From NCBI RefSeq assembly GCF_003334255.1, contig NZ_QOWU01000061.1: DNA of 27,896 nucleotides, one strand, 5' to 3'. A program made the translations under genes and the position numbers. The stretch comes from Escherichia coli. Its GTDB lineage: Bacteria; Pseudomonadota; Gammaproteobacteria; Enterobacterales; Enterobacteriaceae. How positions within the stretch are numbered: the first letter of the stretch is position 1; every line of letters starts with the position of its first letter. This document shows, piece after piece, positions 1 to 7,114 of the stretch. The notes below the pieces were generated by a model. The model saw nothing but the letters and a program-made list of their open reading frames with translations, was not told where the DNA came from and ran no database searches.

Positions 1-263
1 ACGCGAGGCATCGTCTTAACGAGGCACCGAGGCGTCGCATTCTTCAGATGGTTCAACCCTTAAGTTAGCGCTTATGGGTAAACCCCCGGGCGCGTTCCTT
101 TATCAAGATGACGTTCGAATATTCCGGCAGGTGCAGTTTGTTTATTCCAGAAAGGCGTTGAGCGCGTATGAATATAATTCTGTGGGATTTGAAGCATCCT
201 TTTCCCTCCTTCGGTGAATGCGCTGAAAACGGTTTATTCCAGCCGTTTCAGGGTACGCCTGAT

Positions 264-1134: not shown

Positions 1135-2058
1135 TCAGGCATGCTCCAGTGAAAAATTCGGGTAGTGCTCGGCAAAATACTGGCGTAAAAATTCTACCGT
1201 TATCCGCACTTTCGCTGACGTCGCCAGCCTTGAAACATAAACGGCCCAGACGTTCGCTGGCTGGTAATATTCCGGTAGCACTTGCACTAAATGACCACTG
1301 GCAATGTTTTCGCTAACATCCCACCAGGAACGCAGAGCAATCCCCTGCCCATCGAGACACCACTGATGGACAATTTCTCCATGATTAGACGACAGTGGGC
1401 CGGTGACTTTAATCGCATGGGGGCCTTCTTTATTGCGTAATTGCCAGACACCAAAAGGATGATCGCGCTCTTTAATGACCAGGCACGGCAATGCAGAAAG
1501 ATCGGTTAAATGTTTCGGCGCGCCATGTTGCGCAATAAATTCCGGCGACGCGCAGAGAATACGGTAATTGGTCGCCAGTTTGCGGGCGATTAAATTAGGG
1601 GCGATGTCATCGCCAATGCGAATATCGAGATCGACACCTTCATTGACCAAATCGACCAGTCGGTCTTCCACATCAAAACGTAATTCCAGTTGCGGATACG
1701 CCTTCGCCAGCGCTGATAACGCCGGAGCCACCACCTGTCGTCCAAAACCAAAGCTGCTGATAATACGCAGCATCCCCTGCGGCACCTGACGCACGTCAGA
1801 AAGTTCGTCCATCATCTGACCGACATCCTGCAAAATCCGCTGCGCCCATTCATAAATCCGCTCTCCTTCTTCGGTAATGGTGACGCGGCGGGTGGTGCGG
1901 TGTAACAACACCACGTTTAGCGTTTGCTCCAGCAAGGCGATGCGCTTGCTGACGAACGCCGGTGAAACGCCCAGTTCTTCCGCCACGGCGGCAAAACCAG
2001 CCCGGCGAGCCACCAGCATAAAGACGCGCAAATCATTCAGCAGCGGTAAATTATTCAT
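1135..2058 (-). CDS. dmlR: LysR-type transcriptional regulator of D-malate utilisation (307 aa)
   Basis: ORF track 1135..2079 (314 aa from GTG); in-frame ATG at 2058 gives 307 aa MNNLPLLNDLRVFMLVARR... with an N-terminal LysR-type HTH region; divergent from dmlA. Alternative start GTG at 2079. Confidence 0.85.
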   Translation of the reverse strand: MNNLPLLNDLRVFMLVARRAGFAAVAEELGVSPAFVSKRIALLEQTLNVVLLHRTTRRVTITEEGERIYEWAQRILQDVGQMMDELSDVRQVPQGMLRIISSFGFGRQVVAPALSALAKAYPQLELRFDVEDRLVDLVNEGVDLDIRIGDDIAPNLIARKLATNYRILCASPEFIAQHGAPKHLTDLSALPCLVIKERDHPFGVWQLRNKEGPHAIKVTGPLSSNHGEIVHQWCLDGQGIALRSWWDVSENIASGHLVQVLPEYYQPANVWAVYVSRLATSAKVRITVEFLRQYFAEHYPNFSLEHA

Positions 2059-2160
2059 GATTCGTGTTTTATGTTTCACCAGTTACGGGGATTAATTCCT
2101 TTTCAGTCAATTATAGGATGGTGATGTTGTCAATTTTGATGGTCAGGAAGTGAGAACCCA

Positions 2161-3246
2161 ATGATGAAAACGATGCGTATTGCTGCGATCCCGGGAGACG
2201 GGATTGGCAAAGAAGTCCTTCCTGAAGGGATTCGCGTGTTACAGGCTGCCGCTGAGCGCTGGGGCTTCGCCTTGAGTTTTGAGCAAATGGAGTGGGCGAG
2301 CTGCGAGTATTACAGCCATCACGGTAAAATGATGCCGGACGACTGGCATGAGCAACTTAGCCGTTTCGACGCCATCTATTTTGGTGCCGTCGGCTGGCCG
2401 GATACCGTTCCGGACCATATTTCGTTGTGGGGTTCGCTGCTGAAATTTCGTCGTGAATTCGACCAGTACGTCAACCTGCGCCCGGTTCGTCTCTTTCCTG
2501 GCGTTCCCTGCCCGCTGGCGGGAAAACAGCCTGGCGACATCGATTTTTACGTGGTCAGGGAAAACACCGAAGGCGAATATTCCTCGCTCGGCGGTAGAGT
2601 GAATGAAGGTACAGAGCATGAAGTCGTCATTCAGGAATCGGTATTTACCCGCCGTGGTGTCGATCGCATTTTGCGTTATGCCTTCGAACTTGCGCAAAGC
2701 CGTCCACGTAAGACACTAACTTCTGCCACTAAATCGAACGGTTTAGCCATCAGCATGCCGTACTGGGATGAGCGAGTGGAAGCAATGGCCGAGAATTACC
2801 CGGAGATCCGCTGGGACAAGCAGCATATTGATATTCTCTGCGCGCGTTTTGTGATGCAGCCGGAACGATTCGATGTGGTGGTGGCGTCCAATTTGTTTGG
2901 CGATATCCTTTCCGATCTTGGCCCGGCCTGCACCGGCACCATTGGCATTGCCCCATCCGCCAACCTGAATCCGGAACGCACTTTCCCGTCGCTCTTCGAG
3001 CCTGTCCACGGTTCCGCGCCGGATATCTACGGGAAAAATATTGCTAACCCTATCGCCACGATTTGGGCCGGGGCAATGATGCTCGATTTTCTCGGCAATG
3101 GCGATGAGCGTTTCCAGCAAGCGCATAACGGTATTCTGGCAGCAATTGAAGAAGTGATTGCTCACGGGCCGAAAACACCTGATATGAAAGGCAATGCCAC
3201 CACGCCACAGGTTGCCGACGCGATTTGCAAAATTATTTTGCGTTAA
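2161..3246 (+). CDS. dmlA: D-malate dehydrogenase (decarboxylating), isocitrate/isopropylmalate dehydrogenase family (361 aa)
   Basis: ORF 361 aa MMKTMRIAAIPGDGIGKEV... with the typical IDH/IPMDH N-terminal GDGIG motif; matches DmlA (YeaU). Confidence 0.9.
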   Translation: MMKTMRIAAIPGDGIGKEVLPEGIRVLQAAAERWGFALSFEQMEWASCEYYSHHGKMMPDDWHEQLSRFDAIYFGAVGWPDTVPDHISLWGSLLKFRREFDQYVNLRPVRLFPGVPCPLAGKQPGDIDFYVVRENTEGEYSSLGGRVNEGTEHEVVIQESVFTRRGVDRILRYAFELAQSRPRKTLTSATKSNGLAISMPYWDERVEAMAENYPEIRWDKQHIDILCARFVMQPERFDVVVASNLFGDILSDLGPACTGTIGIAPSANLNPERTFPSLFEPVHGSAPDIYGKNIANPIATIWAGAMMLDFLGNGDERFQQAHNGILAAIEEVIAHGPKTPDMKGNATTPQVADAICKIILR

Positions 3247-3267
3247 GGTCAAACCAGTTTATTTGAA

Positions 3268-3292
3268 CCGCGTCACTGACGCGGTTTTTTTA
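3268..3292 (+). terminator. Rho-independent terminator after dmlA
   Basis: CCGCGTCACTGACGCGG hairpin followed by a run of seven T at 3285-3291, about 20 nt after the dmlA stop. Confidence 0.8.
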
Positions 3293-3436
3293 TTCGTTCT
3301 TTGCAGTAAATAACCTGCGTCATTTCACCTTTTATTGTTTCCGTTTCGTGTTTTATGGCTTTCCGTATTCTTAATTGTTTAATTTATGTAACATGCAAAT
3401 TTTGTTACGCGTACGTTAGGTTCCGCCGTACAGGTA

Positions 3437-4882
3437 TTGGTTTTGCTGGCAATGGGACTGGTGATTTATTTAGCCACCAGTAAATACGGCAATATTCGTC
3501 TTGGCGAAGGAAAACCGGAATACAGCACGCTCTCCTGGCTGTTTATGTTTATTTGTGCCGGTTTAGGTTCTTCTACGCTTTATTGGGGGGTTGCTGAATG
3601 GGCCTATTATTATCAAACACCTGGATTAAATATCGCACCGCGTTCACAACAGGCACTCGAATTTAGCGTTCCCTACTCTTTCTTCCACTGGGGCATCAGC
3701 GCCTGGGCAACTTATACGCTGGCCTCATTAATCATGGCTTATCACTTTCATGTGCGGAAAAACAAAGGTCTGAGCCTTTCCGGCATTATTGCTGCTATTA
3801 CCGGCGTTCGCCCGCAAGGCCCATGGGGAAAACTGGTCGATTTGATGTTCCTGATCGCCACTGTCGGCGCACTGACCATTTCCCTTGTTGTTACCGCAGC
3901 AACCTTTACCCGTGGGCTTTCCGCGCTGACCGGTTTACCCGATAACTTCACCGTGCAGGCATTTGTGATCCTGCTTTCCGGCGGCATTTTTTGCCTAAGC
4001 TCGTGGATTGGTATCAACAACGGTTTGCAACGTCTGAGCAAAATGGTTGGCTGGGGCGCGTTCCTGCTGCCATTACTGGTGCTGATTGTCGGCCCAACCG
4101 AATTTATTACCAACAGCATCATCAATGCCATCGGCCTGACCACGCAAAACTTCCTGCAAATGAGCTTATTCACCGATCCGCTTGGCGATGGTTCATTTAC
4201 CCGCAACTGGACCGTTTTCTACTGGCTGTGGTGGATCTCATACACCCCTGGCGTAGCAATGTTTGTCACCCGCGTTTCCCGCGGTCGTAAGATTAAAGAA
4301 GTTATCTGGGGACTGATCCTCGGCAGCACCGTCGGTTGCTGGTTCTTCTTTGGCGTAATGGAAAGCTATGCCATTCATCAGTTTATCAATGGCGTAATCA
4401 ACGTCCCACAGGTGCTGGAAACACTGGGCGGCGAAACAGCTGTACAGCAAGTTCTGATGTCGTTGCCAGCCGGTAAATTGTTCCTCGCCGCATACCTGGG
4501 CGTGATGATTATTTTCCTTGCCTCGCATATGGATGCAGTGGCCTACACCATGGCGGCGACCAGTACGCGTAATCTCCAGGAAGGTGACGATCCTGACCGT
4601 GGGCTGCGTCTTTTCTGGTGCGTGGTGATCACTCTGATCCCGCTTTCCATCTTGTTTACCGGTGCTTCGCTGGAAACGATGAAAACCACCGTCGTGCTCA
4701 CAGCCCTTCCCTTCCTCGTCATTTTACTGGTGAAAGTCGGCGGGTTTATTCGCTGGCTGAAACAGGATTACGCCGACATTCCGGCTCATCAAGTTGAACA
4801 TTATCTCCCGCAGACACCGGTTGAAGCCCTGGAAAAAACGCCAGTGCTCCCTGCGGGAACCGTATTCAAAGGCGACAACTGA
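3437..4882 (+). CDS. yeaV: BCCT-family (betaine/carnitine/choline) transporter, probable carnitine-related uptake (481 aa)
   Basis: ORF 481 aa; aligns by eye with CaiT/BetT from the end of TM2 onward ([23 protein letters not shown]; [24 protein letters not shown]). Longest ORF starts with TTG at 3437; first ATG at 3452. In-frame stops lie upstream. Confidence 0.85.
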
Positions 4883-4913
4883 GCGCCATCATCCTAACGA
4901 TAAAGGTATCCCT

Positions 4914-6038
4914 ATGAGCAATCTGAGCCCTGACTTTGTACTACCCGAAAATTTTTGCGCTAACCCGCAAGAGGCGTGGACCATTCCTGCCCGTTTTTAT
5001 ACCGATCAGAACGCGTTTGAACACGAAAAAGAGAACGTCTTCGCCAAAAGCTGGATTTGCGTCGCTCACAGCAGCGAACTGGCGAATGCCAATGATTATG
5101 TGACGCGTGAGATCATTGGCGAAAGCATCGTGCTGGTACGCGGTCGTGATAAGGTTTTGCGCGCGTTCTATAACGTGTGTCCGCACCGTGGTCATCAGTT
5201 GTTGAGCGGTGAAGGAAAAGCAAAAAATGTGATTACCTGCCCGTATCACGCATGGGCATTCAAACTCGATGGCAACCTGGCCCATGCACGTAACTGCGAA
5301 AACGTCGCCAATTTCGATAGCGACAAAGCGCAACTGGTTCCGGTGCGTCTGGAAGAATATGCCGGATTCGTCTTCATCAACATGGACCCCAACGCCACCA
5401 GCGTAGAAGATCAATTACCCGGCCTGGGCGCGAAAGTGCTGGAAGCCTGCCCGGAAGTCCACGATCTGAAACTGGCGGCCCGCTTTACCACCCGCACGCC
5501 TGCCAACTGGAAGAACATTGTCGATAACTATCTCGAGTGCTATCACTGTGGTCCGGCGCATCCAGGTTTCTCCGACTCCGTACAGGTTGATCGTTACTGG
5601 CACACCATGCACGGTAACTGGACGCTGCAATACGGTTTCGCCAAACCGTCCGAACAGTCGTTTAAATTTGAAGAGGGTACGGATGCGGCATTCCACGGTT
5701 TCTGGCTGTGGCCGTGCACGATGCTGAACGTCACCCCGATCAAAGGGATGATGACGGTCATTTATGAATTCCCGGTGGATTCTGAAACTACCCTGCAAAA
5801 CTACGATATTTACTTCACCAATGAAGAGTTAACCGATGAGCAAAAATCGCTGATTGAGTGGTATCGCGATGTGTTCCGTCCGGAAGATTTACGTCTGGTT
5901 GAAAGCGTACAGAAAGGGCTGAAATCGCGTGGCTATCGTGGTCAGGGGCGCATCATGGCCGACAGTAGCGGTAGTGGCATTTCCGAACATGGTATCGCCC
6001 ATTTCCATAATCTGCTGGCGCAGGTGTTTAAGGACTAA
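4914..6038 (+). CDS. yeaW: Carnitine monooxygenase oxygenase subunit, Rieske [2Fe-2S] non-haem iron oxygenase (374 aa)
   Basis: In-frame ATG at 4914 preceded by AAAGG gives 374 aa MSNLSPDFVLPEN...; Rieske motif CPHRGH...CPYHAW present; the track ORF from 4794 is an upstream extension overlapping the yeaV 3' end. Confidence 0.9.
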   Translation: MSNLSPDFVLPENFCANPQEAWTIPARFYTDQNAFEHEKENVFAKSWICVAHSSELANANDYVTREIIGESIVLVRGRDKVLRAFYNVCPHRGHQLLSGEGKAKNVITCPYHAWAFKLDGNLAHARNCENVANFDSDKAQLVPVRLEEYAGFVFINMDPNATSVEDQLPGLGAKVLEACPEVHDLKLAARFTTRTPANWKNIVDNYLECYHCGPAHPGFSDSVQVDRYWHTMHGNWTLQYGFAKPSEQSFKFEEGTDAAFHGFWLWPCTMLNVTPIKGMMTVIYEFPVDSETTLQNYDIYFTNEELTDEQKSLIEWYRDVFRPEDLRLVESVQKGLKSRGYRGQGRIMADSSGSGISEHGIAHFHNLLAQVFKD

Positions 6039-6093
6039 TGACATCGGCGGCGGTATTTTCCGCCGCTGGGCTGATTTTTGATGGAGTACAGCA

Positions 6094-7059
6094 ATGTCAG
6101 ACTATCAAATGTTTGAAGTACAGGTGAGCCAGGTTGAACCCCTTACCGAACAGGTGAAACGCTTCACGCTGGTGGCAACCGATGGCAAACCATTACCTGC
6201 GTTTACCGGAGGAAGTCACGTCATTGTGCAGATGAGCGATGGTGATAACCAGTACAGCAATGCGTATTCACTACTGAGTTCGCCGCATGACACCTCTTGT
6301 TATCAGATTGCCGTTCGGCTGGAGGAAAACTCGCGCGGCGGTTCCCGCTTTTTGCATCAGCAGGTAAAAGTGGGCGATCGGTTAACGATTTCAACGCCTA
6401 ATAACCTGTTTGCGCTAATTCCCTCAGCCAGAAAGCATCTGTTTATCGCGGGCGGTATTGGTATCACCCCTTTCCTGTCGCACATGGCAGAGCTGCAACA
6501 CAGCGACGTCGACTGGCAGCTACATTACTGCTCGCGAAATCCAGAAAGTTGCGCATTTCGTGATGAGCTAGTCCAGCATCCGCAGGCTGAGAAAGTCCAT
6601 TTGCATCATTCATCAACCGGAACACGACTGGAATTAGCGCGATTATTGGCGGATATCGAACCTGGCACACACGTTTATACCTGTGGCCCCGAGGCGCTAA
6701 TTGAAGCGGTAAGAAGTGAAGCTGCGCGTCTGGACATCGCCGCCGATACGCTGCACTTTGAGCAATTTGCTATCGAAGACAAAACCGGCGATGCATTTAC
6801 CCTGGTGCTTGCCCGTTCCGGAAAAGAGTTTGTGGTGCCGGAAGAGATGACTATTTTGCAGGTTATTGAAAATAATAAAGCCGCGAAAGTGGAATGTTTA
6901 TGTCGTGAAGGGGTATGCGGAACCTGCGAAACAGCAATACTGGAAGGTGAAGCTGACCATCGGGATCAATATTTTAGCGATGAAGAGCGTGCCAGCCAGC
7001 AAAGTATGTTGATCTGTTGTTCGCGTGCGAAGGGTAAACGCCTGGTGTTGGATTTGTAG
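6094..7059 (+). CDS. yeaX: Carnitine monooxygenase reductase subunit, FNR-like flavin/NAD domain plus C-terminal plant-type 2Fe-2S ferredoxin (321 aa)
   Basis: ORF 321 aa; C-terminal CREGVCGTCE ferredoxin cysteine motif; located directly after yeaW. Confidence 0.9.
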   Translation: MSDYQMFEVQVSQVEPLTEQVKRFTLVATDGKPLPAFTGGSHVIVQMSDGDNQYSNAYSLLSSPHDTSCYQIAVRLEENSRGGSRFLHQQVKVGDRLTISTPNNLFALIPSARKHLFIAGGIGITPFLSHMAELQHSDVDWQLHYCSRNPESCAFRDELVQHPQAEKVHLHHSSTGTRLELARLLADIEPGTHVYTCGPEALIEAVRSEAARLDIAADTLHFEQFAIEDKTGDAFTLVLARSGKEFVVPEEMTILQVIENNKAAKVECLCREGVCGTCETAILEGEADHRDQYFSDEERASQQSMLICCSRAKGKRLVLDL

Positions 7060-7063
7060 TTTG

Positions 7064-7114
7064 CCGAAGCCGGATGTGGCGCTGAGCGCGCCCAGTCCGG
7101 CTTCGGAAGATTTT
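7064..7114 (+). terminator. Long GC-rich palindrome (REP-like) acting as terminator in the yeaX/rnd convergent gap
   Basis: Perfect 11-bp arms CCGAAGCCGGA (7064-7074) and TCCGGCTTCGG (7096-7106) with an inner GGCGC/GCGCC stem, followed by GATTTTAC on the plus strand; the GCCGGATG core resembles REP units. Confidence 0.55.

Follow-up and report, generated by a model that had tools for sequence, protein, structure and literature searches.

The stretch of Escherichia coli DNA studied here, a window of 27,896 nucleotides, carries at positions 1135–7114 the known E. coli dmlR-dmlA-yeaV-yeaW-yeaX locus, whose genes form one ancestral carnitine-breakdown cluster and not a set of unrelated modules. 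The cluster itself is already known; the unappreciated point is that in the window strain, and in standard laboratory strains, the carrier gene yeaV is truncated and its promoter region scarred by a deletion. Taken together, the comparisons presented here make it probable that the locus represents, in its E. coli version, a single ancestral cluster for aerobic L-carnitine breakdown, with the regulator DmlR acting at both of its transcription units and with yeaVWX poorly expressed after the deletion. The region 1135–7114 is part of the E. coli chromosome, being 100% identical to strain B-1109 with gene names that match, and all 5,426 complete E. coli genomes match it at least partly. The open reading frames (ORFs) of dmlR, dmlA, yeaW and yeaX, proposed in an original prediction made from the sequence, are borne out by the ORF list and by RefSeq annotation.

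The case for a single ancestral cluster begins with gene order. When 100,044 species genomes were searched with YeaW, 80 loci containing its gene (yeaW = cntA) came up, and in 56 of these, spread over three proteobacterial orders, a reverse-strand dmlR stands divergent from a forward series dmlA-yeaV-yeaW-yeaX. Loci with the conserved order come from Escherichia, Citrobacter, Yersinia, Xenorhabdus, Serratia, Acinetobacter, Pseudomonas, Vitreoscilla and Neisseriaceae, and in Paraburkholderia, where the gene order is different, a dmlA homologue is still found within about 6 kb. The cluster of Acinetobacter baumannii, carR / mdh-bcct(Aci01347)-hyd-cntA-msadh-cntB (Zhu 2014; Breisch 2022; Piskol 2024, PMC11353897), has the same succession of regulator, dehydrogenase, carrier, oxygenase and reductase, and identities to it for dmlR, dmlA, yeaV, yeaW and yeaX are 45–49%, 72%, 54%, 73% and 51% respectively. 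The window shows the Acinetobacter-type arrangement, a divergent LysR regulator and a D-malate dehydrogenase beside the transporter gene and cntAB: dmlR (1135–2058, reverse strand; ORF, RefSeq annotation) encodes a LysR-type regulator that by sequence comparison is the orthologue of CarR, the activator of the A. baumannii carnitine cluster, and dmlA (2161–3246, forward strand) encodes a decarboxylating D-malate/tartrate dehydrogenase, recognized by TIGR02089 at 565 bits, over the cut-off, and orthologous to the Acinetobacter mdh product at about 72% identity. The route from L-carnitine through malic semialdehyde and D-malate to pyruvate has been shown biochemically, with the five E. coli orthologues named (Piskol 2024, PMC11353897), and its stereochemistry ties L-carnitine to D-malate, which is DmlA's substrate (PMC11353897). 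Given that biochemistry, published in 2024, the link between the two parts of the locus is real and already in print. The original prediction had spoken of adjacent catabolic modules; its genes stand, and its framing yields to synteny in 56 of 80 loci and to the published pathway (PMC11353897).

The E. coli form differs from the A. baumannii cluster in lacking both hyd and msadh. In 60 of 78 loci cntA and cntB are separated by a gene of about 1.5 kb, the aldehyde dehydrogenase gene msadh; at that position the window has a spacer of only 55 nt, and msadh is likewise absent from all Escherichia examined and from some Citrobacter, a missing step that the original prediction overlooked. There is no hyd between the transporter gene and cntA, the yeaV-yeaW spacer being 31 nt as against a gap of about 1.1 kb in Acinetobacter. 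Citrobacter genomes without msadh (loci L014–L017 and L082) keep the last msadh codons (GGGCTGTAA) together with the hairpin downstream. Because of this deletion scar, msadh can be said to have been lost, not gained. In the window the 55-nt yeaW-yeaX spacer holds a GC-rich hairpin with a T-run (6044–6079, forward strand; hairpin 6044–6069, terminator-like, −19.7 kcal/mol), also unremarked before, which is orthologous to the hairpin following msadh in Citrobacter and marks the site of the missing gene. Its stem sequences vary between genera while the structure is kept, and it may attenuate or stabilise the transcript ahead of yeaX. Ratios of nonsynonymous to synonymous substitution (dN/dS) between E. 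coli and E. albertii are 0.012–0.076 across all five genes, a strong purifying selection from which we conclude that the cluster without msadh is still in use in the genus.

The lesion in yeaV becomes visible when the window is aligned with strain RM10466, whose yeaV encodes 536 amino acids. A single clean deletion of 225 bp, with 1-bp microhomology, lies at 3399|3400 (junction 3399–3400, relative to intact E. coli alleles); it has taken 97 bp upstream of yeaV plus the opening 128 nt of its coding sequence (43 codons), so that the leader, ribosome-binding site, ATG and first transmembrane helix (TM1) are all missing, as is most of a conserved −10 element. What is left (3401–4882, forward strand) is a BCCT transporter gene without codons 1–43, which RefSeq annotation by the Prokaryotic Genome Annotation Pipeline (PGAP) labels a pseudogene 'missing N-terminus', and the NCBIfam YeaV model NF007412 matches it only from position 45 of 536. 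The annotated 481-aa yeaV ORF (3437–4882) begins at a TTG at 3437, within the second transmembrane helix (TM2), and no convincing ribosome-binding site precedes this TTG. CaiT and other solved BCCT carriers (PDB 2WSX, 3HFX; DddT 21FH) align with the full-length 536-aa YeaV from about residue 16 to 498; the intact allele encodes a full 12-helix protein with its own start codon, and the window copy, without residues 1–43, TM1 and the native start, does not. The original prediction was right about the BCCT family of yeaV and wrong in taking the gene as intact, and the stretch 3293–3436 that it put forward for promoter mapping carries the scar, which it had not noticed. The deletion is not mentioned in PMC11353897, and literature searches on yeaV truncation or pseudogene status, or on yeaV together with dmlR/dmlA, returned nothing relevant.

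Three allele states can be distinguished among the complete E. coli genomes. Of the 5,426, 4,367 have 80% or more of the block and 2,931 have the 225-bp segment, which puts deletion carriers at about 1,440 of 5,426, a figure that is the difference of two BLAST counts (4,367 minus 2,931) and not a direct tally. The junction is identical in the deletion carriers listed, among them K-12 MG1655 and BL21(DE3), both of which we checked for the 225-bp deletion and found to carry it. O157 Sakai has the intact allele, as does SE11, which is listed as a strain converting carnitine to trimethylamine (TMA) and reportedly served for the work on E. coli CntA. The 5' region of yeaV is also intact in E. albertii, Escherichia sp. 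E1V33 and Citrobacter, and because these outgroups are intact the deletion is the derived state. The third state is seen in about 1,060 genomes, B2-like, that are without the whole dmlR-yeaX block, dmlR, dmlA and yeaVWX having been lost together in B2 strains. The B2 strain IHE3034 keeps 168 bp from dmlR and two pieces of dmlA, 173 and 37 bp long, which run straight into the end of yeaX, so that its block (locus L003, 2501–2918) consists of three remnants left by three deletions. Its dmlA remnants are 89–92% identical to the window as compared with 98% for the flanks, and this greater divergence suggests that the B2 block loss is old.

Some further records bear on the distribution of these alleles. 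A copy of the yeaV region lies on NZ_CP074995.1, a 166,865-bp record of E. coli strain 8479, and the genome matches to the block include two places classed as 'plasmid'; the copy could be a mis-binned chromosomal contig or a genuine mobilised copy. In Escherichia whittamii (L006) YeaV homology is confined to roughly the C-terminal 60% and the spacer between dmlA and yeaV is seemingly shorter, which may be an independent lesion. The homopolymer-rich, low-complexity 5' coding stretch of yeaV in E. coli HS-02 (L086, about 700–770) is a probable assembly error and was not counted as an allele. The leader of the intact allele (L002 3819–3857, absent from the window) contains two small hairpins, CTGGC-AAAA-GCCAG and GGGC-N6-GCCC, directly upstream of the yeaV Shine-Dalgarno sequence, at a position conserved in Citrobacter and without an Rfam match; screening the intact locus against Rfam with a permissive threshold brought up two chance matches below threshold and nothing else, and so no known RNA element in the yeaV leader.

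The two halves of the locus are further connected by a sequence that their control regions have in common. A 13-bp box, TTCGTGTTTTATG, has exactly two matches in the 27.9-kb window, where 0.06 would be expected. The first (2061–2073, forward strand) lies in the 102-bp dmlR/dmlA control region and abuts the dmlR start codon, and the core of the box, GTGTTTTAT, occupies the same position in Citrobacter, Yersinia and Serratia. The second (3345–3357, forward strand), a candidate DmlR operator, lies inside a conserved block at about 3324–3360 upstream of yeaV, and here the core is invariant in Escherichia, Citrobacter, Yersinia, Serratia and Xenorhabdus; when yeaV upstream regions from Escherichia to Xenorhabdus are aligned on it, they have the flanking block ATTATTT.CG-N4-core in common. 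The core is also the longest word common to both intergenic regions in Escherichia, in most Citrobacter loci, in RIT691 (Enterobacteriaceae), in Yersinia and in Serratia. Downstream of the second box, phylogenetic footprinting points to a putative yeaV promoter (3375–3403, forward strand) made up of the −35 element TTGTTT (3375–3380), a 17-nt spacer and a hybrid −10 element, AATTTT (3398–3403). The −35, the spacing and a −10 reading AATAAT, TATATT or GATACT are kept in Escherichia, Citrobacter, Yersinia and most Xenorhabdus loci; Serratia deviates at the −35 (TTGTGG). The deletion cuts within this −10, turning the intact AATAAT into the AATTTT of the window.

In the carR-mdh intergenic region CarR binds in a carnitine-dependent manner, according to Breisch 2022 as cited in PMC11353897, and since the core of the box is conserved across genera, DmlR probably controls yeaVWX. 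The original prediction had noted, correctly, that no regulator ORF lies between dmlA and yeaV, and had called a role for DmlR not evident from the sequence; this is fair for a single sequence and ceases to hold once sequences are compared, given the orthology with CarR and the shared conserved box. The arrangement of the Enterobacterales is distinctive in that the dmlA-yeaV spacer is 250–600 nt long and starts with a terminator, unlike the 50–78 nt mdh-bcct spacer of Acinetobacter; in E. coli it measures about 250 bp (155 bp in the window) and holds a terminator and a promoter-like block of its own.

These observations are consistent with the following mechanism. In the complete form the BCCT carrier YeaV would import carnitine, YeaW/YeaX (CntA/CntB) cleaves it to trimethylamine and malic semialdehyde, the aldehyde dehydrogenase msadh would turn malic semialdehyde into D-malate, and DmlA would convert D-malate to pyruvate by oxidative decarboxylation, with the divergent LysR regulator DmlR (= CarR) as the likely activator of the cluster genes. 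In the Enterobacterales the terminator after dmlA divides the cluster, leaving dmlA as one unit and yeaV-yeaW-(msadh)-yeaX as the other; the same box (core GTGTTTTAT) precedes both, and DmlR would be expected to bind at each. In Escherichia, loss of msadh would leave malic semialdehyde to an unlinked enzyme, for which GabD is suggested. In the window the deletion joins the putative yeaV −35 and the first two −10 bases to yeaV codon 44; dmlR/dmlA are most likely still working as a D-malate system, yeaW and yeaX are intact and most likely catalytically competent, and the yeaVWX unit is predicted to be poorly expressed and without a normally made transporter.

Several points weigh against this account. 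Where regulation is concerned, the promoter of yeaV is assigned by conservation, because a sigma-70 consensus scan called no promoter for either yeaV or dmlA. An operator of the LysR type would be expected near −65 with dyad symmetry; the shared box lies about 57–60 bp upstream of the putative transcription starts and has no convincing dyad or T-N11-A symmetry, its conservation at dmlR/dmlA may come partly from the dmlR start codon and first codons, and the dmlR/dmlA region of Xenorhabdus has a variant core, GTAAATTAT; that DmlR acts at the candidate yeaV box is a proposal from comparison. Genomic SELEX (systematic evolution of ligands by exponential enrichment) lists yeaV as a (predicted) CRP target, so that other regulators may dominate there. 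Where the effect of the deletion is concerned, AATTTT retains the critical A2 and T6, which leaves room for some transcription; overexpressing the 481-aa YeaV ORF of K-12 was reported to deplete serum carnitine (PMC10971958), so that the truncated YeaV may have kept transport activity, and other carriers too can take up carnitine. As to phenotype, the missing msadh could by itself explain failed growth on carnitine, the growth reports covering BL21, B and K-12, and the TMA formation attributed to SE11 may have had either the native strain or cloned genes as its source.

An unlikely alternative is that the locus holds two independent modules whose adjacency is historical, dmlR/dmlA serving D-malate/tartrate (plus LeuB back-up) and yeaVWX being under CRP or stationary-phase control. 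For Lukas et al. (2010, J Bacteriol 192:2503) D-malate was reportedly the external substrate of the DmlR/DmlA system. The genes of that D-malate system (YeaT/YeaU), one for a LysR activator and the other, divergent from it, for a decarboxylating D-malate dehydrogenase, are those found here; the comparison made here instead places the pair at the last step of carnitine breakdown and suggests a second DmlR-type site before yeaV. Independence is favoured by the strength of the terminator between dmlA and yeaV, by the want of msadh in E. coli, which leaves the halves not biochemically joined by a local gene, by the description of DmlA as a generalist active on several substrates (PMC11353897), and by the CRP listing. 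In O157 Sakai, yeaV and yeaW are also reported to go up by about 2 units, on the scale of that report, on entering stationary phase with no added carnitine. Neither the CRP listing nor this rise identifies a specific regulator of yeaV, and in the conserved block no convincing CRP-type site (TGTGA-N6-TCACA) or T-N11-A dyad was found by eye. The same alternative has to contend with a gene order kept in 56 of 80 loci from three orders, the stereochemical fit of L-carnitine to D-malate (PMC11353897), the joint loss of all five genes in B2 strains, and a box common to both control regions.

Equally improbable, in our estimation, is that yeaVWX is a dead remnant heading for loss here, the deletion, the loss of msadh and the B2 deletion being stages of decay that leave yeaW and yeaX without a current role: the 225-bp deletion, the lack of cntA transcription in public expression data, the inactive BL21 extract and the roughly 1,060 genomes without the block would all fit, but the yeaW and yeaX ORFs are intact, selection across Escherichia has been strongly purifying since msadh was lost, the two critical positions of the −10 are still in place along with the box and the −35, and yeaW has a ribosome-binding region of its own. 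YeaW is moreover the identical protein (WP_000067822.1) in the window strain, BL21, SE11 and RM10466.

The account of a carnitine cluster is supported by the enzymes that its second unit encodes. The yeaW gene (4914–6038, forward strand; ORF, RefSeq, structure alignment) encodes the oxygenase subunit of carnitine monooxygenase, and the Rieske motif that the original prediction had read in it, CPHRGH...CPYHAW, is present with ligands C-X-H-X17-C-X2-H (sequence CPHRGHQLLSGEGKAKNVITCPYH). YeaW aligns over its full length with structures of A. baumannii CntA (E 9e-197, including 6Y8J), and its Y206, E208, H211, H216 and the Asp of RPEDL align with CntA Y203, E205, H208, H213 and D323, of which H208, H213 and D323 form the iron triad, E205 is the bridging glutamate and Y203 the substrate tyrosine (PMC7948474). 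YeaW has kept its Rieske ligands along with the His/His/Asp triad, the bridging Glu and the substrate Tyr, and with every catalytic residue conserved its oxygenase chemistry is that of A. baumannii CntA. Beside it, yeaX (= cntB; 6094–7059, forward strand; ORF, RefSeq, family matches) encodes the reductase subunit, which matches oxidoreductase families, has flavin and NADH domains, is 51–52% identical to Acinetobacter CntB and carries at its C-terminus the predicted plant-type [2Fe-2S] ferredoxin motif CREGVCGTCE (C-X4-C-X2-C). The earlier assignment of the pair as a CntA/CntB-type carnitine monooxygenase agrees with the full-length alignment, with the catalytic residues and with the published activity of purified E. 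coli YeaW/YeaX, which turns over L-carnitine at 1288 nmol/min/mg (about 1.3 µmol/min/mg) (PMC9508527). The enzyme part of the original prediction is correct and was already established in vitro.

The hairpins of the locus that were earlier said to bound the block as terminators fared differently from each other. After dmlA there is a true intrinsic terminator (3265–3294, forward strand; terminator scan, folding) with a 10-bp stem, a 3-nt loop and seven Ts, whose hairpin (3265–3287) has a folding energy of −15.6 kcal/mol and a z-score of −4.5 and is conserved in Escherichia and Citrobacter. The terminator placed at 3268–3292 is real; standing between dmlA and yeaV, it is an internal feature of the block and not one of its limits. 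At the other end 7064–7114 is not called by the terminator scan; between yeaX and rnd, which are convergent, lies an extremely stable palindrome (7064–7106, on neither strand in particular) resembling repetitive extragenic palindromic (REP) sequences, with folding energies of −38.8 and −34.4 kcal/mol on the two strands, a weak T-run and no proper U tract. Outside the block, yeaR (DUF1971) is present only as a 5' fragment (75–197, reverse strand), and in the best-matching B-1109 and in BL21(DE3) it is split by an IS4-like IS421 element just past the start of the window.

Two further differences from A. baumannii are the truncated carrier gene of the window and the failure of laboratory E. coli to grow on carnitine: BL21, B and K-12 show no growth, and a BL21 extract has no detectable activity (PMC11353897). 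K-12 does appear among carnitine-to-TMA strains in the table of a review, and the study cited there, Rath 2017, used K-12 DNA only as a standard for quantitative PCR, for which reason the entry is no evidence of activity. We put forward only tentatively that the 225-bp promoter and 5' deletion, carried by about a quarter of sequenced E. coli, lies behind the apparent silence of the cntA operon in laboratory work, and that in strains with an intact yeaV (SE11, O157 and most of the B1/E/D type) yeaVWX is expressed from a promoter that depends on DmlR and responds to carnitine or D-malate, and TMA is made aerobically.

The possible part of the deletion in the silence of laboratory strains is a modest and testable addition to what is known of the cluster, and the question of DmlR is answered in outline, as an orthologue of the carnitine-cluster activator with a candidate site before yeaV. 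E. coli cntA/yeaW is the dominant carnitine-monooxygenase gene in human gut surveys and is used as a marker of trimethylamine-forming capacity, trimethylamine being linked to cardiovascular risk. The gene is poorly expressed and correlates poorly with trimethylamine N-oxide (TMAO), for which the three allelic states offer a concrete explanation that would be cheap to test, as does the presence of the deleted state in at least K-12 and BL21(DE3), two of the laboratory strains in which no growth on carnitine has been reported. If the tentative reading is true, counts of cntA in gut metagenomes must separate three states of E. coli: intact, promoter-deleted and absent.

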